64,000 nt of DNA from Escherichia phage tootiki, in the sequence record MN850647.1, one strand, 5' to 3'. Shown piece by piece: positions 2,399 to 49,256 of the stretch. The notes beneath the pieces are model-generated. The model had not been told where the DNA came from and made no database searches. It worked only from the letters and a program-made list of their open reading frames with translations. The number at the start of each line of letters is the position of its first letter. The stretch's first letter is position 1. The translations under genes and the position numbers were made by a program.

Positions 2399-3199
2399 TT
2401 AGTGCAGTTGGTCAGCATACTCTTTTTCAGCCATAGCTGAGATTTGCTTCACAAAATCATCACCGAAGTTAATGCGTAGTTTTTCTTCAATGATTGAAGC
2501 ACCAATGTTCACCAAAACATCATTGATGGCTTGCATACTAACGCCACCAGTCATCTCCTCAATGAACTCAATACTTACACCCATCATCTGTGAAAGTTGG
2601 ATTAGTGCAACGATATTCATCATCGTAGAGATAGCTGGAATCATCAGTGCAACTTTCACCTGAAGTGGTTCTATATCAGCTACAGAGTCATTTTCAACAG
2701 CTTCTTCCAAAGAATCTTTGGTTTGCTGGATAATTTCTTGGATTCGTGGGTTTAGTTCTTCTACCCCCCAATCAAGTTTTTCATATCGTGACAGCTTCTC
2801 TCCCATTCGCTTCTCAAGAGCAGCCATAACAGCACTTGTTGATGAAATTATCATGGAAATTAACTCATTATTACCTAATGACAGTAATAAGTCCTTTTCT
2901 TCAGAGTTAAGGGAGATATAGTCATTTTTCTGCATCTCCTTAAAAATGAACTCTGCAAGAGCATCAACACCTACGACTATAGATGCTAAAGCAAGTGTAG
3001 TGTCTGTCAACATCATGTTAACCTGTTCTGCAAAAGCACCATTATCAGACTTGTCTTCAGGCAAGTTATAGCTTGAAGGCATAAACTGTTCTGTGTAGTT
3101 GTTCCCACGAAGAATCATAGCCATGCTTTCTACGGCATTGATTAAAAATGCTTCGTCAATACCTTTTTCTTCAAGCATCTTTTCTACATCGATATTCAT
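2399..3199 (-). CDS. hypothetical protein
   Basis: 266-aa ORF, tightly packed with neighbours. Confidence 0.6.
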   Translation of the reverse strand: MNIDVEKMLEEKGIDEAFLINAVESMAMILRGNNYTEQFMPSSYNLPEDKSDNGAFAEQVNMMLTDTTLALASIVVGVDALAEFIFKEMQKNDYISLNSEEKDLLLSLGNNELISMIISSTSAVMAALEKRMGEKLSRYEKLDWGVEELNPRIQEIIQQTKDSLEEAVENDSVADIEPLQVKVALMIPAISTMMNIVALIQLSQMMGVSIEFIEEMTGGVSMQAINDVLVNIGASIIEEKLRINFGDDFVKQISAMAEKEYADQLH

Positions 3200-3200
3200 A

Positions 3201-3623
3201 TTATTTCTCTCTCAGTTGGTTAAGTTTCTTTCTAGAACATTTTAAGTTTTCGGATGAAGAAAAGTCAAGTGTCTTTTCAGAACGTGGATAATAGTGCCTA
3301 TCCCAAGAAGTTTCAACATCGTTAATCAGTGACGCTAGATTACACAGGTCTGTACCACTTTGCAACCTCTTTTTAAGAGAGTCTAGTAAAGCAACTGTGT
3401 CTTTAGCTTTACGTCTCGCTGTAGCAACATCTTTCATATGCTCAAATACAGAGCATTTTAAGTCATCTTCATAGTTTTCAGACAACTCTATTTCATGTTG
3501 TATATCAACCATCCTCCTGTGATGGTGAGCATATTCCCGTTGAGCAGCAATGTCAAGTTCTTCCAACTTCTGCAAAGCTCTAACAAAGTCAGCTATGTCT
3601 GGGTGAACAAACATTTTCTGCAT
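3201..3623 (-). CDS. hypothetical protein
   Basis: 140-aa ORF. Confidence 0.6.
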   Translation of the reverse strand: MQKMFVHPDIADFVRALQKLEELDIAAQREYAHHHRRMVDIQHEIELSENYEDDLKCSVFEHMKDVATARRKAKDTVALLDSLKKRLQSGTDLCNLASLINDVETSWDRHYYPRSEKTLDFSSSENLKCSRKKLNQLREK

Positions 3624-3796
3624 GTAAGCCTCTTTTAAGTAACTATTAAGTTTTAATCTTTTATCTTAACGTATTCTATACGTTATACTTTAAAGCTTTT
3701 TAAAAGCTATTAAATAATCTTTTAAGAGTTTTAAAGTATCTGTATAGTTAAACTGTTAAGTAACCTTTTAAGTAAAAACCCACTTCGCAAAGATTA

Positions 3797-15746: not shown

Positions 15747-18098
15747 TTAAGCAGTTCTTACCCAAGCCATTAACTTGTAGAACTGGTTAGTAACACTAAA
15801 TGCTGAACCAGAACCTGTACCACCAGTGTTACCACTAACTGTATGAGTGTGAGCACCGATACCTACACTGTGAGCATGGTTACCAGCAGAAGCGGCAGTA
15901 CCACTTACAGAGTGGGTGTGAGCACCGTTAGCATCGGTGTAACCCGGTCCTACACCAATACTACCACCACCACCACCAGAGTAGTGTGTAGAGTTCTGAC
16001 CAATCCACGAAATGGAATGGTTGTGGTTACCAGCAGATGAAGTAGAGCCACTTACAGAGTGAGCGTGAGCACCAGTCGTGTTAGTGTTTTTAGTTCCGTA
16101 GTCAAAAGATGAAGTGGTAGCAGAAAAACTGTGAGTGTGTGAAGGTAAGTTCCCAACAGCTAACGTCACAGAGTCTGAACCACCAGTTGTAGCAACATCT
16201 GAACCGTTTGCTGCTGCAATTCTAATAGTTCTACCAACACCATTGTTGAGGTACGTCCAAGTTAGACCAGGCAGTGCTGTATTAGGGTTAACATTACTGT
16301 TAAACCATGTCACAATACCTACTGGATAGATTTTATTAAGGTCTGTAGAGTCACTTACTGCCTGTGCAATCTTCTGGTCAGTTTCAGCTTTAGTGTATGC
16401 ACCAAGCTCTGAAGGGGTTGGTTTCTGAGCCTCTGTGTAAACCTTAGACCACTTAGTCTCAAAACCTTTACTGTCTACAGATGTTCTGTACCACATCCCA
16501 CCATTTTTATACTGGAACTTTAGTTGCGCACAGGCAGTAGAAGAGGACACTCCCTGATACATTTGAAATACAAGTGATGTGTAATCACCATTTGGTGATG
16601 TTACATTATATAAGCCTGTTTTAGCGTTCCATGCCACACCATCTGCATTCTGCTCTGTAGCTTCTCCTGTAGAACCTGCAACCATGAATCTCTGATTAGC
16701 TGCTGACTGAGTGAAGTATCTAGCATCTAAGTTAGACCAATCAGAAGGTTTTACCTGTCCAGTAATCTGTAGAGATTTAGACAGAAGAATTTCGTCAGCT
16801 AAATCGAGTCTTGCACCAGTCAAGTAGTTATGGAAAGATGCAATACCAGAACCATTTGTCCCACAACCGATAAACCACTTATTTGTGTTATCAGTATTCT
16901 TACCAACAATGTAAGAAGAATTATTCTGAGCCTTGCTGTAGATTCTTAATGCTTCACCATCAGATTGAATATTCTGCTGTAAAGTGAATGTGTTAGCTTC
17001 ATTCTTCTTAGCAAGATTTGCGTATGAGCCGATAAGAACATAACGAGAGTCAATGTTAGTCCAATCTGAAGGTTGAACTTGACCAGTTACAGTTAGTGTT
17101 TTATTGATATTAACACTTGTCCCTACAGTAATCTTGCCACTAGTTTTGTAGTTTTCTAGAGCTACGTTATCACCTTCGTTACTATTACCAATGTACCATC
17201 TGTTGACACCTGTGCTATCAATCGCCTTAATGTACAATGGTTGTGCAGCATTGGCATTCTGTAGCCTAATTGCTTCACCATCTTTTTTGAAAACACTTAG
17301 TTGGTTGAATGTGTTTAAACCACTGAATGTGTTATTACCAACTAACTGTGCAAATCTCTGATTAGCTGCTGTCTGAGTAAAGTATCTAGCATCTAAGTTA
17401 GAGAAGTCAGAAGGTTGCACTTGACCATTGATTGATAAAGACCTATTAAAAGAAGCAGCCGTGCCTAGAGTGAGGATGGAACCTAGTTTACTCTCGATTT
17501 GAACATCAAGACTACCCCTAATCAGGTTCCCAATAGCCCAAGTTTTTTCATTACTTGCATCCCTACCTACAATAGCAGAGTATGCACTATCCCCACTCAC
17601 AGGAGACCTTAGTGTTAACTGTTCCCCATTTGCTACAATGGTCTGTTTAGAGTTAAATGTGTTTGTAACAGCCAACCTTGCATATCTTGCGTCATTCTCT
17701 TCATTAGTTCTCATCCCAAGTTCATTAGGACTTGGCTTATTAAGAGTATGATAAACAGTTGCAGACCTTGAAGCATCTGCAATAGTTAGTTTAAGACCAT
17801 TTGCGTTGATTTTAAAAGCCTTTAAAACATCCCCCATAGTAATCTCAGAAGAACCTGTAGGGTCAAATACTGCCTTACCACCATAAAGTAACTTGACAAT
17901 TCCTAAGTCACCCGTCATAGTGCTACCAGCAATCTGGACAAACCTTTCTAGTTTAAAAGATGCTAAGAAGTCTTGATAGGTCATTCGACGGTCTTCATCA
18001 CCCAACATTTCAGGTCTCTTTTTAACCCTGACATGAAGAAGGTCATCTGAACGAATTGTATCAATTGAGTTTAATTCACTCAACTTGTAATCTGCCAT
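15747..18098 (-). CDS. tail fibre protein with C-terminal HxH repeats
   Basis: Repeated GAHAHSVSG / AGNHNHS / GAHTHTVSG motifs near the C-terminus. Confidence 0.7.
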   Translation of the reverse strand: MADYKLSELNSIDTIRSDDLLHVRVKKRPEMLGDEDRRMTYQDFLASFKLERFVQIAGSTMTGDLGIVKLLYGGKAVFDPTGSSEITMGDVLKAFKINANGLKLTIADASRSATVYHTLNKPSPNELGMRTNEENDARYARLAVTNTFNSKQTIVANGEQLTLRSPVSGDSAYSAIVGRDASNEKTWAIGNLIRGSLDVQIESKLGSILTLGTAASFNRSLSINGQVQPSDFSNLDARYFTQTAANQRFAQLVGNNTFSGLNTFNQLSVFKKDGEAIRLQNANAAQPLYIKAIDSTGVNRWYIGNSNEGDNVALENYKTSGKITVGTSVNINKTLTVTGQVQPSDWTNIDSRYVLIGSYANLAKKNEANTFTLQQNIQSDGEALRIYSKAQNNSSYIVGKNTDNTNKWFIGCGTNGSGIASFHNYLTGARLDLADEILLSKSLQITGQVKPSDWSNLDARYFTQSAANQRFMVAGSTGEATEQNADGVAWNAKTGLYNVTSPNGDYTSLVFQMYQGVSSSTACAQLKFQYKNGGMWYRTSVDSKGFETKWSKVYTEAQKPTPSELGAYTKAETDQKIAQAVSDSTDLNKIYPVGIVTWFNSNVNPNTALPGLTWTYLNNGVGRTIRIAAANGSDVATTGGSDSVTLAVGNLPSHTHSFSATTSSFDYGTKNTNTTGAHAHSVSGSTSSAGNHNHSISWIGQNSTHYSGGGGGSIGVGPGYTDANGAHTHSVSGTAASAGNHAHSVGIGAHTHTVSGNTGGTGSGSAFSVTNQFYKLMAWVRTA

Positions 18099-18144
18099 TA
18101 TAAATTTTCCTCTTAAAAGGGGCTATAAAGCCCCTGTAAAGAAA

Positions 18145-19293
18145 CTAAGCTGTTCTCTGCCATACATACAATACGAAGGATGGCTGTTCAACACTAAATG
18201 CTTGACCAGAACCAGTTGGACCAGTTGTGCCAGAGTGTGAATGCTCACCTGCTCCGGTTACTGTTACTGTTGCTGAGTGGTTGTGGGAACCAATTGCAAC
18301 AGAATGGTTGTGAGCACCAATCCCAACTGTGTGATTATGCGCGCCAATTGCTACAGAGTGAGTGTGGTTGTTAGCTGTTGTCAACGTAGCTCTTGGGTCA
18401 TAGCTTGCCCCCTCAACCGATAAACCTCTCCAGCCACCATCAGCATAGCCACGGTTAATGAATGTTGTTTGTGTTAAGCCAGCGGCACTTGTTGTTCTGT
18501 TGCCATAGTCGTAAGTAGATACGGTCTTGGTTCCGTAGTCAAACGTTGTAGTCCCTTTAGTGCCATAATCAAAAGCACTGATAGAGGCCGTTGCACCATG
18601 AGTGTGACCACCACCAGTGACATACACTGAGTGGGTATGTGCAGGGATGTTATTAACCGTCAGTGCAGTAGTCTGTGAACCAAACGTTGAACCAACTGGC
18701 CTAGAATCACTATCATAACCTACAAGTGCTCTCCCTTTTGAGACTAACTCCCAAGTACCTCCACAAATTAAATATGTAGAGGGGTTTGCAGGATTCATAG
18801 AAAGATGGATAGTACCTACTGGATAAGAAGCCTGAACAGCCTTGTACAAGTTATTTACTGCTCTTGCTGTAGCATACTTATCTGCATCCTCATTATAAAG
18901 GTTAGATGTCACCCAGTTCTGAACATTACTTAACCCAACCTGTGCCTTAGTGGTGTTGTGTGGGTTGCTCTTATCATCAATATGTTGTTGAATAAGATTA
19001 TTAACCTCTTCTGAAGACATAATCTGTAGATTTGCTCTTGCCTCAGCTACATTAACAATATCTGATAAGTTATTTGCAGCAACTAACTGAAGAGCATTAA
19101 TAACATTGTCTAGACCAATTTGTGTCTTAGTAACACCATGAGGGTTGTTTCTTAGGCTTGAGTGTGGAGCAAGTAATTGCTCAAGAGTACATCTCTTATC
19201 CTCGATACCCTGTTTAAGATGGAAGATATCACTAAGGTCAATTGGTAAGGCTGCTTGAGGCAAGGCACTAATTTGAATTTCACCTACTGCCAT
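18145..19293 (-). CDS. tail fibre protein with HxH repeats
   Basis: AHTHSV, GGHTHG, NNHTHSVAIGAHNHTVGIGAHNHSVAIGSHNHS repeats. Confidence 0.7.
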   Translation of the reverse strand: MAVGEIQISALPQAALPIDLSDIFHLKQGIEDKRCTLEQLLAPHSSLRNNPHGVTKTQIGLDNVINALQLVAANNLSDIVNVAEARANLQIMSSEEVNNLIQQHIDDKSNPHNTTKAQVGLSNVQNWVTSNLYNEDADKYATARAVNNLYKAVQASYPVGTIHLSMNPANPSTYLICGGTWELVSKGRALVGYDSDSRPVGSTFGSQTTALTVNNIPAHTHSVYVTGGGHTHGATASISAFDYGTKGTTTFDYGTKTVSTYDYGNRTTSAAGLTQTTFINRGYADGGWRGLSVEGASYDPRATLTTANNHTHSVAIGAHNHTVGIGAHNHSVAIGSHNHSATVTVTGAGEHSHSGTTGPTGSGQAFSVEQPSFVLYVWQRTA

Positions 19294-31768: not shown

Positions 31769-32875
31769 TTATTCGCCTTCAGCATCAGCGCGAACATCTA
31801 CCAGCAACTGAGGACGAGTACAGTATGGCAGCATGTAAGAGTGAGCTTCGAAGTCAATACCTTCGTCACGGTCTTTTTCGTATTCGAATACATACAGTTC
31901 CTGACCAAGTGTATTTGCGTAACCCATCTTAGGACATGGACCGTATGCAACTTCGAAGATGTTGTTAGCTTCACCAAGCATAGATACGTTAGGGAAAGCA
32001 TGACCAACACCAACAGTGTCTGCTACACTATCAATGCTCACCAGAGTGTGAACCTTACCACGCTTGTCTTTGAACTTACCGTTGTACTGGACAAACTTAA
32101 CACCACCGTAGTAGAAGGTGTTCATATGAGCCTGAACGCCGTCAGTACCACCAGTTCTCAGAGAACCAGTAATCTGTTGCCAAGCCAGTGGAGTCTGCTG
32201 TGCAAGATAGGCGTCACGAATCTTAGGGTGCTTAGTCAGTTTGCTGAAGAATACACGGTCAACAACTACGTGAATTTCTTCACCGTTGATTACAGTGCCA
32301 GTCTTAGCTTCGTCTTCCATGTGCATACGCAGTTCTTCAATAGAAGCGTCGATGTCAGCATTAGGGTTGTCAAGGTCGAAGTAAATAGTCTTCTTCTCAA
32401 CGTCGAACTGTTTGTACAGGTCAGCGTACAGAGTACCACGAGCATCAACAACTTTACCCTTCAGAGCTTGCATAAACAGGAACTCACGAGTAATATCAAA
32501 CTTGGTACGAATCTTCATCAGCTTCTTGGCACGTACTACAGCTTCAGTAGTCAGTTCGTTTGCAGTGCCTGGCTGACGTACACCCTGAATCTCATCAGGA
32601 GTAATGCTTTCAACTTCTTTGAAGTACATCATTGGGAAGCTGATTTGACGAACACGCTCAGGTGCGCTAGTCTCTGCTTTACGGCTATCACGGTCTACCG
32701 CATCAAGCAAGCTAACATCCCAATCAGTCAAGTCCATAAGGAAAGTAGTTTGGGTGATTGGTGCTGAACGGAACAGACCTAAGTTGGAAATATACCCATA
32801 AGTATTTGGGATAGACTGGACTTCACCAGTCAGGTCAGCAAGGAAAAATCTGCTTTTTTCAGAATTAGTCAACAT
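31769..32875 (-). CDS. major capsid protein
   Basis: 368-aa ORF directly downstream of the protease/scaffold and decoration genes. Confidence 0.65.
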   Translation of the reverse strand: MLTNSEKSRFFLADLTGEVQSIPNTYGYISNLGLFRSAPITQTTFLMDLTDWDVSLLDAVDRDSRKAETSAPERVRQISFPMMYFKEVESITPDEIQGVRQPGTANELTTEAVVRAKKLMKIRTKFDITREFLFMQALKGKVVDARGTLYADLYKQFDVEKKTIYFDLDNPNADIDASIEELRMHMEDEAKTGTVINGEEIHVVVDRVFFSKLTKHPKIRDAYLAQQTPLAWQQITGSLRTGGTDGVQAHMNTFYYGGVKFVQYNGKFKDKRGKVHTLVSIDSVADTVGVGHAFPNVSMLGEANNIFEVAYGPCPKMGYANTLGQELYVFEYEKDRDEGIDFEAHSYMLPYCTRPQLLVDVRADAEGE

Positions 32876-34988: not shown

Positions 34989-35488
34989 TAATTAAACCTT
35001 ACTTTTTGTTTAAGGACTGTTGAATGGTTACCAGATTCATCTACCACATTTACAATCATATCATAAACTTTACCTTTGACAAGTACTTTGTAATCATTTT
35101 GTGAAAAAATGTACTCAAGTCTGTTTGTTTCTTTATTAACTGTCATTGGAGATTGAAATGCAGTGTCGAGGGTAATGAAAGCGGCTTCAATGCTATTAAC
35201 ATTGATACGTTTATTCTCGCAGTTATATAACTTTACACCCAAAAGGCATGAACTGTCAAATGGAATTTTAACAATTTCACTACAATTTCCTGAAATAAAC
35301 GGTTTTCCACTCATTGGTGCATCAAGTAACCTGCAAATAGTGAAAACGTCAGAGGCTCCACCATCACTTACATAACCTGAAAGGCTGACCCTTGAGCCAG
35401 CCTCTACAGATAATTTGTCAGTGATAATAAGAACACCTCTATACGAATGCACTCGTGTAGCATTTGAAATAGAGATAACTTCAGCCAT
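34988..35488 (-). CDS. hypothetical structural protein
   Basis: Synteny. Confidence 0.45.
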   Translation of the reverse strand: MAEVISISNATRVHSYRGVLIITDKLSVEAGSRVSLSGYVSDGGASDVFTICRLLDAPMSGKPFISGNCSEIVKIPFDSSCLLGVKLYNCENKRINVNSIEAAFITLDTAFQSPMTVNKETNRLEYIFSQNDYKVLVKGKVYDMIVNVVDESGNHSTVLKQKVRFN

Positions 35489-36963
35489 TATTTATTTGCC
35501 TTATTTGCTGTGCTTGGGTCTTTTGCTGAAGGTGTCTTTGCAGTACCTTCTCCAGCGGTCTTATAACCATCTCCTGAACGGCTTTGGCTATTTGGAGAAA
35601 GCTTTTCAGATACTGGCTGAGACTCATCAGCAGGAGGAAGACCAATATGCTCTCTAAGCTTGTTAGATAGCTCTTTGTCAACTTCCAAAGCACCTACTGC
35701 AACAGTCTTCTGAATATAAGAACCAATTGCTTCAAGGTCTGGAGTTTCGATATCATCATATGTGATTTGCACATGTTCTTCATCATCCCACATATTAAGA
35801 GCATAAGTCTGTGCAACTAAATCACGGTTAATTACATTCTTAATTTGCTTCAGCAGGATATCTACTGACATCGCTAATAAGCTTGTCTTAGAATCTGCAA
35901 GAGAGAATGAACCATATTTTGACTGACCCATAGCAAGAACATCTGACATAAATGCCATCATAATCTGCTTGGAATATCTGTCAATAATAGAACCTGTGTC
36001 GTATGCTTTAGCACCCTGTCTAGAGACTAATGAGAACTCAAAAATATCCTCTTTAGTATCTGGGTCGATATATCTAGGCCAGATTAAACCTGCTCTGTCA
36101 TTTGCAATCATATCATTAACAACAGTTTTGCAGTATTGTACGAAAGCTTTCTTTTCAGGTTCTGCATTCTCATCCAGATAGTCCGGTGGTAAACCAATCT
36201 TTGGCATACCAACCAAGTCTCTTGAAACACCAACAGCTTCGTACTCTTCAATCTGTACTTTATATTTCCACGGTACATAAGCATTAAGTAATGGTGAACG
36301 ACCTTCTGGGTTTCCATATTCATCGTCATACTTGAACAGCATGAATTTAGCTCGTGGAAGTTTTCTTGTTAGTGGTCTTTCTCCAAGATTAATTGCTCCA
36401 GCAATATGTGAAACATTTCTCAGATTCTGTCTAACACCAGTAACTTTTCTAAAGTCTTCGTCAAAATACCACTTATCAAGTGTTGATTGGTTTCTGATTG
36501 GTAATTTAGCCCATCCAATTAGACCATCATCAAATTTTGACTGGTACTTTCCTTTTTTACCCTGACGCTTCTTATAAACTTTCTCGTTAACACAGAACCC
36601 ATAAGTGCAGAATGACATTACAGAGTTAATAAAATCTGCCCAATCATGCTCCATGTCATCCATTAAAGAATTAAAGAAGTCTGCTCTTTCAAGCATTTTA
36701 GGGTCTTGCTCTTTTCCCTTTGGAGGTACGAATCTCCAGTTGACTTTTCTGACAAACATCTTAATAATATTTACAGATGCTGCTACAGCAGGGTCACGCA
36801 TCATTAATTGGAAAGTTTTAATACTTTCAGGGAACCTTAGTGCCTGACGAGGTTCTTCATAGATTCTTCCATTCTTAACCTTCAGACCCAAAGAACCTAC
36901 TTCACCCATTCTAAATGGTGGTAAGCTTTCTTGTGTTTCTGTAATTTCTGCCATTCTTCTCAC
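35488..36963 (-). CDS. portal protein
   Basis: 491-aa ORF immediately downstream of the large terminase. Confidence 0.7.
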   Translation of the reverse strand: MRRMAEITETQESLPPFRMGEVGSLGLKVKNGRIYEEPRQALRFPESIKTFQLMMRDPAVAASVNIIKMFVRKVNWRFVPPKGKEQDPKMLERADFFNSLMDDMEHDWADFINSVMSFCTYGFCVNEKVYKKRQGKKGKYQSKFDDGLIGWAKLPIRNQSTLDKWYFDEDFRKVTGVRQNLRNVSHIAGAINLGERPLTRKLPRAKFMLFKYDDEYGNPEGRSPLLNAYVPWKYKVQIEEYEAVGVSRDLVGMPKIGLPPDYLDENAEPEKKAFVQYCKTVVNDMIANDRAGLIWPRYIDPDTKEDIFEFSLVSRQGAKAYDTGSIIDRYSKQIMMAFMSDVLAMGQSKYGSFSLADSKTSLLAMSVDILLKQIKNVINRDLVAQTYALNMWDDEEHVQITYDDIETPDLEAIGSYIQKTVAVGALEVDKELSNKLREHIGLPPADESQPVSEKLSPNSQSRSGDGYKTAGEGTAKTPSAKDPSTANKANK

Positions 36964-36970
36964 CTAGCTA

Positions 36971-38587
36971 TCAACGTCTAAGCCCCTCATATGGGTTTCC
37001 TCTCACTAAGTCTGTGTGAGCACCCATTGATGGTGGCTTGAATAATTTAACTTCGTTAAGACTGTTGAAAGCATCACTGGTAGCATCCACTTGGTCATCT
37101 TTAGTTTTACCATCACCACAAAAACCTTCAAGTTCTTGAAAGTAAGCTTCGTTCCAACTGCCTCTCAAGACTTTTACAAGTCCAGCTTCAGAAGCAGCAG
37201 AAAATCCCGCAAAGCGGGTAACTTTATCTTTATTTGTTGGTTTAGCTCTTGCGCGATAACCTTTCTCGGCAAGTTTCCTGATGAGGGATGTTGCATAGGA
37301 TTTACCAGCAGCGCCTGGGTCTTGAGGGATAAAAATACCAGTTCGCTTACCGTCACTTTCAGCAGTCAAATTAATTTGTGTTTCGACTCCAGAGGGTCTA
37401 TCTCTAAATCTTACTACATCAATGATATAATAGCAACCGTCTTTTTTAGATTTACCCATCTTAACACCCGCTGTCCAGTCTGGGTTAGGGTTAATTTCAG
37501 ATGGTAAAGTCGCTGCTAAGTCCCATGCTCTGACATCAAACACATCTTCTGGGAGTGAATCAACAATCTCACACCATTGTCTTTGCCAATAGTTTGAACC
37601 TTCTGCACGAGCCTTCCAGTTACCGAAACGAAGTCTTGCAACGTTTACAGGTGTGTTGTTTTCCAACTTACCACGATATTTAGGCTCTAAGAAGTCAAGA
37701 ATTGGGTTATCATCAATCGTACCAGAGATGAAGGTGTATGTCTGAGGAATCTCAAGAGGGAACATTTCAAGAATCTTGTCTCTCTCCCAATCAGAAACCA
37801 TCACACCATCATTCATAACATACCAACGAATACGACCACACTTCTCAGGGTCTGGGTAACCTTCTTCATCTAAGAATGGCTCTACCCAATCATAAATGAA
37901 GTGGTCTCTGTCTGGGTTCATAGAAATCTTCATGTATGAATCGCCTTCAGCACCAGAACGTAGACGGGTCTGTAGGTATGAAATCTGTGAAGCAGAGAAG
38001 TGTGTACCTTCGTCAAAGTAGATAGCTGAGTATTCAATACCCTGATGACCTTCAGCGTGCTTTTCAAGTTCTAAGTAGGTGAACTTAATAGTTGCCCCAG
38101 AAGGGAACGTGATAGTCATCTTCTGCTCGTGAGGAACCCCACCAAACTTACCAAATAGTTTCTTTGCAGCAGGCCATAAACCACCTTGTAACTGTGTTGT
38201 ATTTCGACGGAAATATACAGCATTATAGTTAGGGTCTTCAATAAACCTTAAAGAGTCCATTAACAATGCAGCAGTTTTACCAGCACCAGCAGCACCACCA
38301 TAGAGTACCAAGTCAGCATTAGTGTTTAAAAAGACCTCTTGAGAACCCGGCTGAGGGGCTACATAGTTCTTATCAGTCATCAACTTAAAGATAAGGCGAA
38401 CTTGGTCTGGTGTGTATCTTAATAAAGTCAGAATTTGAGTTGGAAGGAATTTAGAGGGGTCTTTACCGAATGATTTGATAATTTCTTTTACTTCATCAGA
38501 AAGCCCCAACTCTCCAGCTAGGACTTTCCTAACATCTTCCACTCGCTTCTGCTTAACAGCATTTAAATCCATTAAGCGCCTCCGCAA
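36971..38587 (-). CDS. terminase large subunit
   Basis: Walker A YGGAAGAGKTAAL, Walker B-like IYFDEGTHF, C-terminal nuclease-like acidic motifs. Confidence 0.85.
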   Translation of the reverse strand: MRRRLMDLNAVKQKRVEDVRKVLAGELGLSDEVKEIIKSFGKDPSKFLPTQILTLLRYTPDQVRLIFKLMTDKNYVAPQPGSQEVFLNTNADLVLYGGAAGAGKTAALLMDSLRFIEDPNYNAVYFRRNTTQLQGGLWPAAKKLFGKFGGVPHEQKMTITFPSGATIKFTYLELEKHAEGHQGIEYSAIYFDEGTHFSASQISYLQTRLRSGAEGDSYMKISMNPDRDHFIYDWVEPFLDEEGYPDPEKCGRIRWYVMNDGVMVSDWERDKILEMFPLEIPQTYTFISGTIDDNPILDFLEPKYRGKLENNTPVNVARLRFGNWKARAEGSNYWQRQWCEIVDSLPEDVFDVRAWDLAATLPSEINPNPDWTAGVKMGKSKKDGCYYIIDVVRFRDRPSGVETQINLTAESDGKRTGIFIPQDPGAAGKSYATSLIRKLAEKGYRARAKPTNKDKVTRFAGFSAASEAGLVKVLRGSWNEAYFQELEGFCGDGKTKDDQVDATSDAFNSLNEVKLFKPPSMGAHTDLVRGNPYEGLRR

Positions 38588-39016: not shown

Positions 39017-39092
39017 TGGAGAATCCGAAGGGACTCGAACCCTTATAAACCTGTTCTGCAGACAGGTACATATCCATTTCTGTCACGGATTC
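39017..39092 (-). tRNA. tRNA-Cys (anticodon GCA)
   Basis: Cloverleaf by eye: acceptor GAATCCG/CGGATTC, anticodon stem CCTGT/ACAGG, loop CTGCAGA, T-loop TTCGAGT, CCA encoded. Confidence 0.7.
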
Positions 39093-39096
39093 AAAT

Positions 39097-39189
39097 TGGA
39101 GGAAGATACCAGACTTGAACTGGTACACCGATTTCTCAGCTACTGGCAGTTTAGCAAACTGCTCCCTTACCTTTTAGGGTTAATCTTCC
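39097..39189 (-). tRNA. tRNA-Ser (anticodon GCT), long variable arm
   Basis: Acceptor GGAAGAT/ATCTTCC, anticodon loop TTGCTAA, 21-nt variable arm, T-arm ACCAG-TTCAAGT-CTGGT. Confidence 0.7.
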
Positions 39190-39190
39190 A

Positions 39191-45872: not shown

Positions 45873-46244
45873 TTATTTTTTGAGAGTCGCTACAGCAGAG
45901 AACGTTGGTTTGTTATCTGTCTGTTGTTGACCACCATTATCAGGAGTCTTCTTAGTGTCTGCTGCAAGTGCTTTCATCTCACCTGCTGAGTGAGTAAAGA
46001 TAGTTTTACCGACCTCAATCATACTCTTGATGGTTACATCATCTGTGTTTAACCCGAACTCTGCAAGCTTAGCAGCGTCCCTTGTAACAATCGCCTCAAA
46101 CAACTTTGCAGCAAACTCAGCAGAATTATCAATGGTCAGTTGAGCTTTTACGAGTGAGCTTTTGTTACGAGAGCCTTTTGGTCTTCCAGATGGGTTTCCA
46201 GACTGGCCTTTTTTAAACTGGCCTTTGTTTGTTCTGTTTTTCAT
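45873..46244 (-). CDS. hypothetical protein with basic Gly-rich N-terminus
   Basis: N-terminal KGQFKKGQSGNPSGRPKGSRNK motif. Confidence 0.55.
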   Translation of the reverse strand: MKNRTNKGQFKKGQSGNPSGRPKGSRNKSSLVKAQLTIDNSAEFAAKLFEAIVTRDAAKLAEFGLNTDDVTIKSMIEVGKTIFTHSAGEMKALAADTKKTPDNGGQQQTDNKPTFSAVATLKK

Positions 46245-46655: not shown

Positions 46656-46870
46656 AAATCGCAGATATTATAGATTTATATCAAACTGCAAAGAGTCATG
46701 GCTATATAACCTCAATTGGAAAGAATAGTCACTATGATGCTTTGACTGGAATGTATTTCAGGGCAATGGCTCAATCTAGTGAACAACACTTAGTAGTTTC
46801 TTCCAGTGAGTTTACTTCGTTTCTCTATTGCAGCAAAATTATAAATCGCAGGAGAACTGAAAAATGTTAA
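46637..46870 (+). CDS. hypothetical small protein
   Basis: 77-aa ORF. Confidence 0.4.
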   Translation: MCSSQLEIADIIDLYQTAKSHGYITSIGKNSHYDALTGMYFRAMAQSSEQHLVVSSSEFTSFLYCSKIINRRRTEKC

Positions 46871-47454
46871 CAGTAAGTTTTAATTACAATAGTGATGGCT
46901 CTGTATCAATTAATTCACCATATGCAAATGACCTGCTTAAAGAGCTAGTCAATCAGTGTGATAGAGGTCTTCACTATGTTCAAAATTCTTTTAAACAGAA
47001 GACTATTGCTAATAACTTGATGCGTGTAACAGTGACGGCATCGAATCTAAATTATGACTTTGATAGTGAAAGTCCGTACTCATTAGTTGCGCTTGGAGAG
47101 AGCAGCCAATTCAAACTTGTTTGCCACGACTCAGAAACATTCCTTAAGGTATTTTCCAACCTTATCCATAATAATAAGTACAGCTACGTTGATGGTAGTG
47201 TAAACTTCTATCCAGCAAACTATACATGTTTGTTGGTTGATAATATGAGAAAAAGTAAGCAAGAGCCTACAGAAATTTCATTTGATGTGAACTCTAGTCC
47301 AGACGCAGAAACAAGTAAGAACTTTGATATGAGTTACGCATTGTCACTTAGTAAGAAATCCGAGTTCATTGATTATGTCAATGGATTTGGTTTTAAGTTT
47401 GATGAGAGTATGAATCTTAAAAAACTTAAGAACCTACTTAAGACCAAAGCTTAA
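46864..47454 (+). CDS. hypothetical protein
   Basis: 196-aa ORF. Confidence 0.55.
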   Translation: MLTVSFNYNSDGSVSINSPYANDLLKELVNQCDRGLHYVQNSFKQKTIANNLMRVTVTASNLNYDFDSESPYSLVALGESSQFKLVCHDSETFLKVFSNLIHNNKYSYVDGSVNFYPANYTCLLVDNMRKSKQEPTEISFDVNSSPDAETSKNFDMSYALSLSKKSEFIDYVNGFGFKFDESMNLKKLKNLLKTKA

Positions 47455-47501
47455 GTGTGAATAGGGGCTGATGCCCCTTTAACTATTTATAAGGATATTT
47501 A

Positions 47502-47873
47502 ATGAAAGCTAAGAGTGCAAAAGACTTTTATTGCTTCCTACAATCCTATATCAATTCCGTGCAAAATGGTGAAAGGTACAACCTTAATGATGTTATCCCA
47601 ACACCTTTGACATGGAGACTCAGCAAATGGCCTGAAGAAGATATTACACCAACAATCGAACAGCGTACCTACAAACCTGAAATCAATATTCCAGATTCTG
47701 AGAACCTATTATATCCAATGTTCCATATTGTTGGACTTGGAAGATTCCTTATGGATATCCAGTATGTAATTGGTAAAGGCTATAAGGTTAAAGGTATTGT
47801 TGTTGGTGATGTATCTCCGCATCACAAAGGTTATTTTAGACTAAACGCACATTTAGAGGCTAAAAAGAAATGA
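47502..47873 (+). CDS. hypothetical protein (paralog of the N-terminal domain of the next gene)
   Basis: Similarity to 47870..48754 N-terminus: KxKxxxDFxxFxxxxIxxVxxGxRY, W/YxPEADI, YKPExxxPxSxxLLY, FxMDxQYxI. Confidence 0.55.
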   Translation: MKAKSAKDFYCFLQSYINSVQNGERYNLNDVIPTPLTWRLSKWPEEDITPTIEQRTYKPEINIPDSENLLYPMFHIVGLGRFLMDIQYVIGKGYKVKGIVVGDVSPHHKGYFRLNAHLEAKKK

Positions 47874-48754
47874 TTAAAGCAAAGACTTACCCAGACTTCA
47901 AAGAGTTTGTGAAGGGTTTCATTGCAAATGTAAAGGCTGGTAAGAGGTATGATTTTAGAACATATCAAGAGGCTATTTTACCACTTACCTATAGTTCATA
48001 TTGGCCTGAAGCTGATATTGCAGAAGTTGAGAAGTTTGACTACAAACCAGACTACAAAGTTCCATTTAGTGATGAATTGCTTTACAGTGTTGGTGCACAG
48101 ATGAGAACTGCTGATTTCTTCATGGATTTGCAGTATGCAATCATCAATGGTAAAGATGTTGACACAATTTACTGTGAATGGTTGGCAAGAGTTAAGCCGT
48201 TCTCAATGTTGAATGCTAAGTTGAAGGATGCTATTAAGCCACCAGCAATTACTCAGCAACCGACAGGTCAAACAGTCAATGAGGGTGGCACACTTACTCT
48301 AAGCATTCTAGCAACTAACGCCACTGGATATCAGTGGAAGAAGGATGGTGAGGACATCCCTAGTGCCAATTCTGCAACTTACACAAAACAGTCAGTAGCA
48401 CCTTCTGATGCTGGTTCATACACTTGTGTTGTATCTGGAGAGGGTGGAACAAGTGTTACCTCAGATGCAGCAACAGTGACTGTGAATGCACTTCCTGTCA
48501 TCACTCAACAGCCAACCAATCAAGAAATCAATGAAGGTGAGACCTTAACGTTGAATGTTGTGGCAACAGGTGCAACAGGTTATCAGTGGAAGAAAGATGA
48601 GGAAGACATCCTCGATGCAACTACTGCAACCTACACCAAAGAAGGAGCAACCGCTGCTGATTCAGGAAGCTACACCTGTGTAGTTACTGGTGCAGGTGGC
48701 TCTGTAACATCTAATGCGGCAACAGTTACAGTTAACCCAGCAGGGGAGGCATAA
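47870..48754 (+). CDS. protein with two C-terminal Ig-like domains
   Basis: Tandem repeats ITQQPTxQxxNEGxTLTLxxxATxATGYQWKKDxEDIxxAxxATYTKxxxxxxDxGSYTCVVxGxGGxSVTSxAATVTVN. Confidence 0.6.
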   Translation: MIKAKTYPDFKEFVKGFIANVKAGKRYDFRTYQEAILPLTYSSYWPEADIAEVEKFDYKPDYKVPFSDELLYSVGAQMRTADFFMDLQYAIINGKDVDTIYCEWLARVKPFSMLNAKLKDAIKPPAITQQPTGQTVNEGGTLTLSILATNATGYQWKKDGEDIPSANSATYTKQSVAPSDAGSYTCVVSGEGGTSVTSDAATVTVNALPVITQQPTNQEINEGETLTLNVVATGATGYQWKKDEEDILDATTATYTKEGATAADSGSYTCVVTGAGGSVTSNAATVTVNPAGEA

Positions 48755-49218
48755 TGCAACTCTCAAGAAAAGGTTTAGAAGCTATTAAGTTCTTTGAAGG
48801 TCTGAAGTTAGAGGCTTACAAAGACTCCGCCGGAATCCCAACAATTGGGTATGGTACAATCCGTATTGACGGAAAACCTGTTAAGATGGGTATGAAAATT
48901 ACTGCTGAACAAGCTGAACAGTATCTTCTCGCAGATGTTGAAAAGTTTGTTGCAGCAGTGAACAAAGCTATCAAGGTTCCAACCTCTCAGAATGAGTTCG
49001 ATGCACTTGTAAGTGAAACATACAACATTGGTATCACAGCTATGCAGGATTCTACATTTATTAAGCGCCACAATGCTGGTAATAAGGTAGGTTGTGCAGA
49101 AGCTATGCAGTGGTGGAACAAGATTACAGTCAAAGGTGAGAAGGTCACTTCAAACGGTCTGAAAAACAGACGTAGAATGGAAGCTGACATTTATCTTGAC
49201 AGTGTATATCCAAAGTAA
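48754..49218 (+). CDS. endolysin (T4 lysozyme-like)
   Basis: FEGLKLEAYKDSAGIPTIGYG catalytic-region pattern (Glu ... Asp ... Thr). Confidence 0.8.
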   Translation: MQLSRKGLEAIKFFEGLKLEAYKDSAGIPTIGYGTIRIDGKPVKMGMKITAEQAEQYLLADVEKFVAAVNKAIKVPTSQNEFDALVSETYNIGITAMQDSTFIKRHNAGNKVGCAEAMQWWNKITVKGEKVTSNGLKNRRRMEADIYLDSVYPK

Positions 49219-49227
49219 TATCTTCAT

Positions 49228-49256
49228 AGGCTCCTTCGGGAGCCTTTTTTATTTTC
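49228..49256 (+). terminator. rho-independent terminator
   Basis: AGGCTCC-TTCG-GGAGCCT hairpin followed by TTTTTTATTTT. Confidence 0.65.

Follow-up and report, generated by a model that had tools for sequence, protein, structure and literature searches.

Two adjacent paralogous genes, the second of which encodes Ig-like domains, lie directly upstream of the endolysin gene of Escherichia phage tootiki, raising the question of what an Ig-bearing protein does beside a lysis gene and what its Ig-less neighbour contributes. We addressed this question in a stretch of 64,000 nucleotides from this phage (sequence record MN850647.1), referred to here as the window. The source phage is a Felix O1-like myophage (Felixounavirus), and the locus shows 98.8% nucleotide identity to Felixounavirus phages. 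The explanation that we consider very likely for the locus as a whole is that the long gene encodes the head decoration protein Hex-Dec, whereas the short gene is a derived duplicate encoding nothing but the capsid-binding domain (CapBD). The relevant features are the following:

47464..47490, plus strand: weak terminator, read directly as a short G+C hairpin with a T-rich tail (ggggctgatgcccc tttaactattta)
47502..47873, plus strand: short paralog, 123 aa, an open reading frame at exactly these coordinates
47870..48754, plus strand: Hoc-like capsid decoration protein of the Hex-Dec/gp20 type, 294 aa, an open reading frame at exactly these coordinates
47870..48238, plus strand: CapBD of Hex-Dec, aa 1-123, delimited by alignment to 9c2d_S and 9ncf_S
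48248..48499, plus strand: Ig-like (I-set) domain 1, aa 127-210 (Pfam Ig_3/I-set; pLDDT 90-97)
48500..48751, plus strand: Ig-like (I-set) domain 2, aa 211-294 (Pfam Ig_2/I-set), equivalent to the last repeat where the gene is longer
48754..49218, plus strand: GH24 endolysin (Pfam Phage_lysozyme, 8.9e-41; PHROG 7)
49228..49255, plus strand: strong intrinsic terminator (AGGCTCCTTCGGGAGCCT + TTTTTATTTT), from a terminator scan
31769..32875, minus strand: major capsid protein (MCP), the predicted docking partner of Hex-Dec, an open reading frame with Asp221 present

The short gene, the Hex-Dec gene and the lysin gene form a compact late unit that is translationally coupled and bounded by terminators. 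The weak hairpin, identical in sequence to 't38' of Felix O1 (Felix O1 paper, Table 2), sits between an upstream gene for a 196-aa protein and the short paralog, which has an AAGGA Shine-Dalgarno sequence 7 nt 5' of its ATG. The stop codon of the short gene overlaps the start of the long gene (ATGA), with a GAGG Shine-Dalgarno sequence located 10 nt upstream of this start. The stop codon of the long gene, in turn, overlaps the endolysin ATG (TAATG), and the Shine-Dalgarno sequence of the lysin gene (GGGGAGG) lies within the last codons of Ig domain 2. The strong terminator that closes the unit is the equivalent of Felix O1 t35 (Felix O1 Table 2). The structural module, as mapped in the window, lies elsewhere: the genes for TerL, the portal protein, the MCP and the tail fibres are found on the minus strand at 38.6-15.7 kb, and an array of 24 tRNA genes separates them from the Hex-Dec locus. 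A gene of the Hex-Dec type is also located just upstream of the lysin gene in Felix O1, Sf14, ASO1A, a Hafnia phage and an Erwinia phage; the Hafnia phage and the Erwinia Kolesnikvirus each have a single CapBD gene, followed by the lysin gene. This arrangement represents the ancestral placement of the CapBD gene across the subfamily Ounavirinae.

The long protein is an ortholog of Bas63 Hex-Dec and Sf14 gp20 and, as such, the hexamer-centre head decoration protein of the genus. Its best matches in the PDB are 9ncf_S (E=5.8e-248) and 9c2d_S (E=7.4e-165), both covering aa 1-290 (phmmer), and it matches PHROG 3995 over its full length. It is 100% identical in the phages garuso, bumzen, ekra and LF82P3 and shows 92.5% identity to Felix O1 gp36. 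Near-identical orthologs have been modelled in cryo-EM structures of the capsids of Bas63 (9NCF chain S) and Sf14 (9C2D/9C3A chain S). The CapBD encoded in the window is ~95-98% identical to that of Bas63 Hex-Dec and ~88% identical to that of Sf14 gp20, and the three proteins share Arg79 and Arg107, an Asp221 in the cognate MCP, C-terminal I-set Ig repeats, a gene position upstream of the lysin gene and a short paralog further upstream. The number of Ig domains, with two in the window, four in Bas63 and three in Sf14, is the sole difference between them. The main finding is already known, because the presence of the protein in virions, its location on the capsid, the position of its gene, its misannotation and its range of one to four Ig domains have all been published, in the Felix O1 proteome study of 2010 and the Sf14 and Bas63 cryo-EM studies of 2025.

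For Bas63, the CapBD of Hex-Dec was described as N-terminal and bound at the centres of edge hexamers, with the gene lying >10 kb outside the structural module and relatives of the protein carrying 1-4 Ig domains (Bas63 paper). Sf14 gp20 was detected by mass spectrometry and binds only pentamer-proximal hexamers, with R79 and R107 forming salt bridges to Asp221 of the MCP; its exclusion from the true three-fold hexamers was attributed to a different geometry of Asp221 (Sf14 paper). Since this docking geometry has been shown in the orthologs and all three contact residues are present in the window, a similar arrangement can be proposed for the source phage. The N-terminal 120-aa CapBD would plug as a monomer into the centre of a hexamer, where salt bridges from Arg79 and Arg107 to MCP Asp221 would hold it in place, and the occupied sites would be the 60 pentamer-proximal hexamers of a T=9 capsid. 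Both arginine residues are conserved in every member of the long family examined. The MCP encoded in the window is ~99% identical to that of Bas63 (9ncf_A) and ~93% identical to that of Sf14 (9c2d_A), and its residue 221 is an aspartate within the sequence KIRDAYL. Binding to hexamer centres in the source phage is predicted by homology, from orthologs with a CapBD identity of 92-98%.

The two tandem Ig-like repeats recognised in the initial annotation were borne out as 84-aa units that are 68% identical to each other (E=5e-33), and the corresponding region matches the Pfam families Ig_3 (3.5e-23), Ig_2 (4e-18) and I-set (3.4e-16). Structure prediction, which had been proposed as a check, likewise supports an Ig fold: in the AlphaFold2 model, both units are beta-sandwiches with pLDDT values of 90-97, and the top 50 PDB matches obtained with Foldseek for the long-protein model are all tandem Ig structures, such as Robo2 Ig2-3 (I-set). 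An exhaustive CapBD profile search returned 58,073 matches, all of them giant bacterial Ig-repeat proteins; the profile had retained Ig columns (211 positions), making this result uninformative on the anchor. The assertion that Ig-like domains usually decorate virions also held, and the virion proteomics suggested as a further check is available in the literature for the ortholog Felix O1 gp36, which was found in CsCl-purified virions with 44% peptide coverage (Felix O1 proteomics, 2010). With T4 Hoc and T5 pb10 as models, the two acidic I-set domains may extend from the capsid as a flexible fibre. The most likely role of this putative fibre would be to attach the particle weakly to surfaces, such as the host envelope, mucus or other glycans, or to influence how particles aggregate. 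As to function, the sole hint on Ounavirinae Ig domains comes from Bas63 gene 124, which has a modest and strain-specific effect on fitness in E. coli S17-1.

Like Hex-Dec, T4 Hoc is a monomer that sits at hexamer centres and bears several acidic Ig-like domains in a row; it can be dispensed with, and its relatives differ in how many Ig domains they have. The PHROG families named 'Hoc-like head decoration' match the long protein only at residues 120-292, the Ig region, and there is no sequence similarity between Hoc and Hex-Dec outside the Ig domains. Moreover, the capsid-binding domain is C-terminal in Hoc but N-terminal in Hex-Dec, and Hex-Dec differs in binding only 60 of the 80 hexamers. 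The Hex-Dec anchor was also described as topologically distinct from that of Hoc, larger and pseudo-two-fold symmetric (Bas63 authors). T5 pb10 (PDB 5LXK, 8ZVI) contains an Ig domain homologous to residues 129-207 of the long protein (E ~2e-12), but residues 1-122 do not resemble the pb10 capsid-binding domain in sequence, pb10 has a single Ig domain, and no Ig-less paralog of pb10 is known.

As in other phage structural proteins with appended Ig domains, Hex-Dec carries an accessory, surface-exposed Ig module on a virion protein. Ig-like domains of the I-set, Big_2 and FN3 classes are said to have been recognised in phage virion proteins by Fraser and colleagues in 2006. The same Ounavirinae anchor carries I-set domains in the window, a Big_2 domain in the Erwinia phage and other beta-domains in the Hafnia phage. 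Many phages rely on programmed frameshifting to append the Ig module and so produce forms with and without Ig domains. The window differs from this situation in that the two forms are products of two paralogous genes, with the Ig-less form apparently missing from the virion.

The paralogy of the genes at 47502 and 47870, as claimed in the initial annotation, was confirmed (38% identity over 101 aa, E=9e-17, BLASTP), although the domain common to the two proteins comprises ~118-120 aa rather than the ~110 aa given there. The short protein is a CapBD-only paralog, ending after the CapBD. A comparison of ~45 short and 40 long homologs revealed 35 positions that are conserved and identical in both families and 41 positions that are conserved inside each family but differ between them. 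In the short family, the position of Arg79 is taken by an invariant Gly and that of Arg107 by H, Q or R; the pI is 9.1 for the short protein versus 5.5 for the CapBD of the long one. A Pfam search detected no domain or recognisable motif in the short protein, which belongs to PHROG 4463 (unknown function) and has equivalents in Felix O1 gp37, Sf14 FDI99_gp021 and Bas63 gene 125. In a sequence search of the PDB, its only matches were 9ncf_S and 9c2d_S. Its AlphaFold2 model similarly matches only the CapBDs of Sf14 and Bas63 in the PDB (TM 0.59 and 0.57), at a modest confidence (pLDDT 63) and with an input alignment that included long-family sequences; this fold comparison was calibrated by the identical order of secondary-structure elements in the short and long models. 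Compared with Hex-Dec and gp20, the short paralog thus has the CapBD fold, lacks the Ig domains and the anchoring arginines, is basic and appears in neither of the published virion models.

A tandem duplication of the CapBD alone, in the ancestor of Felixounavirus and Mooglevirus, gave rise to the short gene as the derived copy; of the two copies, the long one is the closer to the outgroup CapBD. It is present in ~233 of 252 records from the two genera, and its low omega values identify it as a gene under purifying selection: omega is 0.03-0.06 for comparisons inside a genus and 0.17-0.20 for those between genera, where dS reaches ~1. Between genera, the short protein has diverged in amino-acid sequence twice as far as the long CapBD (dN 0.19 versus 0.09). 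A conserved and selected Ig-less copy of the capsid anchor adjoins the Hex-Dec gene in two genera, a point that is not discussed in the cryo-EM papers. The short gene is nevertheless dispensable in culture, with near-neutral knockout fitness for Bas63 genes 124 and 125, and it has been lost in one natural clade: Z31, REP9, CECAV_041 and EcF-vB share a deletion allele of it, while retaining the t38-type hairpin. This loss in a natural clade, together with the neutrality in culture, shows that the function of the short protein, whichever it may be, is conditional. In REP9 and CECAV_041, Hex-Dec is intact despite the destruction of the short gene. A role of the short paralog as an obligate Hex-Dec chaperone is unlikely, as phages of the natural deletion clade still have an intact Hex-Dec gene.

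The short protein is not among the reported virion proteins of Felix O1, in a shotgun proteome that did detect a 9.7-kDa protein, nor among the 22 virion proteins of VpaE1; these absences are negative evidence, since a low-copy 14-kDa protein could be missed. No density was attributed to it in the cryo-EM maps of Bas63 or Sf14, and neither paper mentions the short paralog. The Sf14 paper and its supplements contain no mass-spectrometry evidence for Sf14 gp21, the table being restricted to proteins of the structural list and the supplements including no protein list, and the wV8 proteome paper covers mass spectrometry of the tail fibre only. Tentatively, we favour the possibility that the short protein is a soluble late protein that has retained a transient recognition of capsid hexamers or procapsids; it would be an accessory to head decoration, or tune it, and be absent from the mature particle. 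A more specific and more doubtful proposal is that it represents a new kind of accessory factor of decoration-protein origin, produced late and in translational coupling with Hex-Dec. Soluble and basic, it would mimic the capsid anchor and might engage hexamer centres, in procapsids or at the 20 facet-centre hexamers, transiently or at low occupancy, thereby tuning the sites and the number of the Ig fibres on display, or it might have been re-purposed to another target in late infection. Should the short protein prove to influence decoration or the assembly of heads, it would represent a novel class of regulator, through which capsid display might be controlled in therapeutic phages of the Felix O1 type.

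Nearly on a par with transient capsid recognition, although still unlikely in itself, is the recruitment of the short paralog to an entirely new, non-capsid role, for instance to bind a host or defence component, or nucleic acid, in late infection, with only ancestry and fold in common with the anchor. The reversal of charge, the 41 conserved positions unlike those of the long family and the loss of both capsid-anchoring arginines would all fit such a role, as would the lack of reports from virions and the doubled inter-genus dN; conditional dispensability, moreover, is typical of accessory host-interaction genes. However, the protein has no recognisable motif or Pfam domain, and a related function better explains why its gene always adjoins that of Hex-Dec and is tightly coupled to it in translation. 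Furthermore, the PhageMaP text describes no phenotype of Bas63 gene 125 in the 12-system defence screen and reports no role of this gene in triggering or countering defence.

It is improbable that the short paralog is a second head decoration protein that occupies the 20 facet-centre (true three-fold) hexamers by means of a re-tuned, arginine-free basic surface. The short protein does keep the whole fold and core of the CapBD, with contact residues altered in a family-conserved manner, and its gene is expressed late, alongside the morphogenesis genes; in addition, the three-fold hexamers, with their different Asp221 geometry, offer a vacant and different site (Sf14 paper), on which icosahedral averaging would blur a monomer. 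However, both cryo-EM studies report the other hexamers to be devoid of density, the protein is unreported in the Felix O1 and VpaE1 virions, and phages do without the gene both in culture and in one natural clade. Less probable still is the notion that the short gene is a functionless, slowly decaying leftover of the tandem duplication. In one clade it has become a pseudogene with no obvious ill effect, its knockout in Bas63 is close to neutral and no function is known for it, but the reading frame is intact in most records across two genera, omega is low within and between them, and the 41 family-specific invariant positions and the conserved Shine-Dalgarno sequence and start codon indicate selection on the protein.

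For the long protein, the reading as a tail protein, or as a non-structural Ig protein that aids the endolysin by binding cell-wall carbohydrate, is highly improbable. The initial annotation had rightly placed the locus outside the structural block and next to the endolysin gene, but the non-structural or lysis-related protein that this position implied did not stand up to the capsid cryo-EM of the orthologs and the finding of Felix O1 gp36 in virions. The gene does adjoin the lysin gene and is translationally coupled to it, and labels in GenBank and PHROG read 'tail protein' or 'HK97 major tail subunit'. However, the 'tail' label stems only from the likeness of the Ig domains to those of major tail proteins, with PHROG major-tail matches limited to residues 96-208. 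The long protein has no tail-tube Pfam domain, and its residues 1-122 match the capsid-bound CapBD, which sits on capsid hexamers in the orthologs. The 'tail protein' annotation of Hex-Dec has accordingly been called incorrect in explicit terms (Bas63 authors). A lysis-related role was rejected on the virion evidence (capsid orthologs in the PDB and mass spectrometry of Felix O1 virions). Moreover, Felix O1 ORFs 36 and 37 both reach maximal transcription late, and the transcription peak of the lysin gene precedes theirs. The practical value of the assignment is corrective, because most database records and PHROG 3995 still label Hex-Dec a 'tail protein'. A fusion with two capsid-binding domains, made by -1 ribosomal frameshifting at the AAAAAG run that precedes the ATGA overlap and reminiscent of the frameshift-appended Ig domains of many phages, has a negligible likelihood. 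The long frame does lie at -1 with respect to the short frame, and 'GCT AAA AAG AAA TGA' does hold an A-rich, slippery-like run. We reject this reading, however, because the run is missing in Sf14 (GCT AAG AAA TGA), with GAGG and the ATGA overlap being invariant, and because phages with a destroyed short gene retain an intact Hex-Dec, expressed from its own start; nor were any gp37 peptides reported in Felix O1 virions.

In-register recombination between the tandem repeats is what makes the number of Ig domains vary from one relative to another. This source of copy-number change is added by the present analysis, in which the hybrid repeats were mapped. The two-Ig gene of the window equals the three-Ig gene of VpaE1_ev78 minus exactly the middle repeat, with 98% nucleotide identity between the two Ig1 repeats and likewise between Ig2 of the window and Ig3 of ev78. 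In Felix O1, Ig2 is a hybrid that combines the middle repeat with the last one, the crossover lying at the GYQWKK block, and in the one-Ig protein P0064 the Ig1 of the window passes into the tail of Ig2 at GSYTCVV. Recombination of this kind accounts for the variation between one and four Ig domains, a point that both cryo-EM papers left open, and suggests that the length of the display is easily changed, by nature or by engineering.

The window carries two adjacent open reading frames, a short and a long gene, directly upstream of a GH24 endolysin gene (the lysin gene):

47502-47873, + strand, short gene (open reading frame, 123 aa)
47870-48754, + strand, long gene, Hex-Dec (open reading frame, 294 aa; PDB matches 9ncf_S and 9c2d/9c3a_S)
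aa 127-210 and aa 211-294 of the long protein, Ig repeats 1 and 2 (internal repeat and Pfam)
48754-49218, + strand, GH24 endolysin (Pfam)

The initial annotation had described the pair as paralogs sharing a domain, the second with two tandem Ig-like repeats, next to the endolysin, and this observation is confirmed in every respect. The two proteins are 38% identical across 101 residues (BLASTP, E=9e-17), and the long one ends in two 84-aa units that are 68% identical to one another (E=5e-33) and match the Pfam families Ig_3 (3.5e-23), Ig_2 and I-set. No Pfam family matches the short protein. Structure prediction, proposed as a check, also supports the Ig fold, with AlphaFold2 giving both domains pLDDT values of 90-97 and the closest structural matches of the model being tandem I-set Ig domains, such as Ig2-3 of Robo2.

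The long gene encodes a known Felixounavirus capsid decoration protein; the observation is real, and its explanation is already published. Nucleotide identity of the locus to Felixounavirus phages of E. coli is 98.8%, and 252 phage records contain this locus, with proteins of phages garuso, bumzen, ekra and LF82P3 being 100% identical to the long protein. In the PDB, the long protein aligns from residue 1 with chain S of 9ncf ('Immunoglobulin-like domain protein', E=5.8e-248) and of 9c2d/9c3a ('tail protein', E=7.4e-165), entries from the icosahedral reconstructions of the Bas63 and Sf14 capsids. The Bas63 ortholog, named Hex-Dec, has flexible Ig-like domains following its capsid-binding domain (CapBD) that are not resolved in the reconstruction (PMC12609058). 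Its Sf14 counterpart, gp20, was seen by mass spectrometry and sits on pentamer-proximal hexamers only, with an N-terminal CapBD of 118 residues whose Arg79 and Arg107 form salt bridges with Asp221 of the major capsid protein (MCP) (PMC11821841). Felix O1 gp36, 92.5% identical to the long protein, had earlier been detected in CsCl-purified virions with 44% coverage (PMC3185647). The long protein of the window possesses both arginines, and the MCP of the window, ~99% identical to that of Bas63, contains Asp221. The PDB matches, the virion evidence for orthologs and the presence of these residues therefore place the long gene in this characterised family, all of whose sequence-testable defining features are found in its product. 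The protein would be expected to dock on the capsid in the manner shown for Sf14 and Bas63, and its Ig fibre may, by analogy with T4 Hoc, act outward in adhesion or aggregation control.

T4 Hoc and T5 pb10 work like the long protein, yet it belongs to neither family: the similarity is limited to the Ig domains, and its anchor lies at the N-terminus and has, in the description of the Bas63 authors, a topology different from that of the T4 Hoc anchor (PMC12609058). We reject its identity as a tail protein, a label that the same authors declare wrong (PMC12609058). Database labels for 47870-48754 disagree, including 'tail protein' (also used for PHROG 3995, to which the long protein belongs), 'HK97 major tail subunit', 'major tail protein', 'multidomain protein with s-layer homology region, glug motif, ig...' and 'immunoglobulin I-set domain protein'; 'decoration protein' is rare among public records, and UniRef calls the short paralog 'Tail protein' too. 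One database match (H184), GenBank GU169904.1 142309-143190 in the 147-kb 'Staphylococcus phage SA1', is a Felixounavirus Hex-Dec locus (91.8% amino-acid identity), and this record is probably chimeric or contaminated.

The position of the long gene had been considered unexpected. It indeed lies on the + strand away from the other structural genes, but the puzzle is already answered by the ortholog studies, which identify its product as a virion decoration protein. The surroundings comprise the following features:

15747-19293, - strand, tail fibres (structural module)
31769-32875, - strand, MCP (structural module)
35488-36963, - strand, portal (structural module)
36971-38587, - strand, TerL (structural module)
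39017-44210, - strand, 24-tRNA array between the terminase gene and the Hex-Dec locus
47464-47490, + strand, weak hairpin before the three-gene unit, identical to Felix O1 terminator t38
49228-49255, + strand, strong terminator after the unit, equivalent of Felix O1 t35

Between the structural module and the + strand block lie the tRNA array, a usual feature of Felix O1-like phages, and a divergent intergenic region. In the + strand block, the short gene, the long gene and the lysin gene form a compact three-gene unit. The short gene has the Shine-Dalgarno sequence AAGGA and overlaps the long gene at ATGA, with GAGG 10 nt upstream of the long-gene start; the long gene in turn overlaps the lysin gene at TAATG, with GGGGAGG within its own 3' end. 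A frameshift fusion of the short and long genes can be rejected because Sf14 lacks the AAAAAG run in front of the ATGA overlap, whereas GAGG and ATGA themselves do not vary. By RT-PCR, ORF 36 and ORF 37 of Felix O1, the latter being the counterpart of the short gene, are transcribed late, peaking at 60 min along with the portal and tail-fibre genes, and lysin expression peaks at 25 min (PMC3185647). A CapBD gene followed by the lysin gene is also found in Mooglevirus (Sf14), an unclassified Hafnia Ounavirinae phage and Erwinia Kolesnikvirus. As this order is conserved beyond the genus, the lysin-adjacent position dates back to the ancestor of the subfamily rather than being a recent peculiarity, and it is a conserved, previously noted subfamily feature. 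What this anchor carries differs between lineages, the I-set domains being replaced by a Big_2 domain in the Erwinia phage and by other beta-domains in the Hafnia protein; the anchor itself stays constant, and the displayed module is exchangeable. Immediately upstream of the unit, 46864-47454 (+) encodes a conserved 196-aa protein (PHROG 4034), which we count to the Hex-Dec neighbourhood because homologs occupy the same position in Hafnia and Erwinia Ounavirinae phages.

The remaining interest lies in the recombination behind the variation in Ig copy number and in the undescribed CapBD-only paralog. Felixounaviruses carry one to four Ig domains per protein (PMC12609058). We compared the Ig repeats of the window, VpaE1_ev78 and Felix O1 at the DNA level, together with the metagenomic protein P0064. 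Ig1 of the window shares 98% identity with Ig1 of the three-Ig gene of VpaE1_ev78, and Ig2 of the window shares 98% with Ig3 of that gene, so that the window gene corresponds to the VpaE1_ev78 gene minus exactly the middle repeat. The second Ig of Felix O1 is a hybrid of the middle and last repeats: nt 1-70 are 80-93% identical to the middle repeat vs 57-63% to the last, whereas from ~nt 76 onward the values are 90-100% for the last and 53-77% for the middle repeat, placing the crossover in the conserved GYQWKK block. P0064, with a single Ig, is identical to window Ig1 through GSYTCVV and to window Ig2 beyond. The in-register hybrids, with crossovers at GYQWKK and GSYTCVV, map to the window and two relatives' loci:

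48248-48751, window
2949-3701, locus L002
3499-3750, locus L003

The in-register form of these chimeras shows the copy-number variants to arise by unequal homologous recombination between tandem repeats, which accounts for the published range. This mechanism is a modest addition to both cryo-EM papers, which left the cause of the variation open (PMC12609058, PMC11821841).

The same two papers make no mention of the short paralog (PMC12609058, PMC11821841). It spans the complete CapBD and nothing beyond, and its only PDB matches by sequence are the two Hex-Dec chains. An AlphaFold2 model of modest confidence (pLDDT 63) has the same order of secondary-structure elements as the long-protein CapBD and matches only 9c2d_S (TM 0.59) and 9ncf_S (TM 0.57). 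The short paralog adjoins Hex-Dec in ~233 of the 252 records, across Felixounavirus and Mooglevirus, and neither the Hafnia nor the Erwinia lineage has it. Given this distribution and the closer similarity of the Erwinia CapBD to the long copy (50 bits vs 35 bits to the short one), the short gene is a derived tandem duplicate born in the common ancestor of Felixounavirus and Mooglevirus. Its dN/dS ratio ranges from 0.03 to 0.06 among members of the genus and from 0.17 to 0.20 in comparison with Sf14 (dS ~1); judged by these substitution patterns, it is under purifying selection, which rules out a decaying remnant. At the amino-acid level, it has diverged about twice as much as the long CapBD. 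A comparison of ~45 short and ~40 long sequences revealed 35 conserved positions at which both families have the same residue and a further 41 that are conserved inside each family but differ between them. In the short family, an invariant Gly replaces Arg79, and H, Q or R stands at the position of Arg107. The short protein has a pI of 9.1 (net charge +3.8), compared with 5.5 for the long CapBD and 4.6 for whole Hex-Dec. Thus, it shares ancestry and fold with the Hex-Dec/gp20 family but departs from it in two defining features, the anchoring arginines and Ig display; for these reasons, and because published virion protein lists and capsid maps did not reveal it, it is not classed here among the decoration proteins.

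Knockouts of Bas63 genes were scored in the PhageMaP screen, where gene 123 encodes the endolysin and gene 124 Hex-Dec; by gene order, we take gene 125 to be the short paralog. Genes 124 and 125 score near or above zero on S17-1 and a second host, with noisy values for gene 125 on the latter (-1.3 to +1.1; essential genes ~-1 to -3), and the authors consider gene 124 somewhat more important on strain S17-1. By this screen, the short paralog is dispensable in culture. It has also been lost in nature: phages Z31, REP9, vB_CECAV_041 and EcF-vB, from China, USA, Spain and Egypt and from three host genera, have one pseudogenised allele in common, which lacks the start codon and contains frameshifts and a ~220-bp internal deletion with breakpoints identical in all four. 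Compared with window 47502-47873, it lies in four relatives' loci:

2806-2997, locus L005
2306-2497, locus L008
2313-2497, locus L009
locus L010

About 19 of the 252 records fall in this loss class. Hex-Dec remains intact in REP9 (293 aa) and CECAV_041 (210 aa), making an obligate Hex-Dec chaperone unlikely; in Z31, a frameshift affects the Hex-Dec Ig region as well.

Our tentative preference is that the short protein could be a soluble late protein that transiently recognises hexamers or procapsids and might thereby tune decoration or assembly. Recruitment to an unrelated late-infection target is a somewhat doubtful alternative, and it is rather unlikely that the paralog is a decoration-derived regulator of assembly or occupancy or a re-purposed factor. 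A low-copy second decoration protein, missed on the 20 facet-centre hexamers, is improbable; the short paralog is not among the 17 listed Felix O1 virion proteins, which include a 9.7-kDa protein (PMC3185647), or the 22 listed for VpaE1, and no density was reported on the unoccupied hexamers of Bas63 or Sf14 (PMC12609058, PMC11821841).

Further genes of the region were also noted. Abutting the tRNA array, 44376-45791 (-) encodes a 471-aa protein with DUF2828 and DUF7788, termed 'RNA-binding protein' in relatives, whose adjacency to the tRNA genes may be meaningful. A 123-aa DUF5681 protein is encoded at 45873-46244 (-); its apparent counterpart by DUF5681 label and gene order, Bas63 gene 129, belongs to the genes that PhageMaP scored as most strongly required (~-0.9 to -3.5). 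The Bas63 endolysin g123, ortholog of 48754-49218, was more dispensable under several defence systems in PhageMaP and was assayed for an ability to trigger the Ec67 retron.
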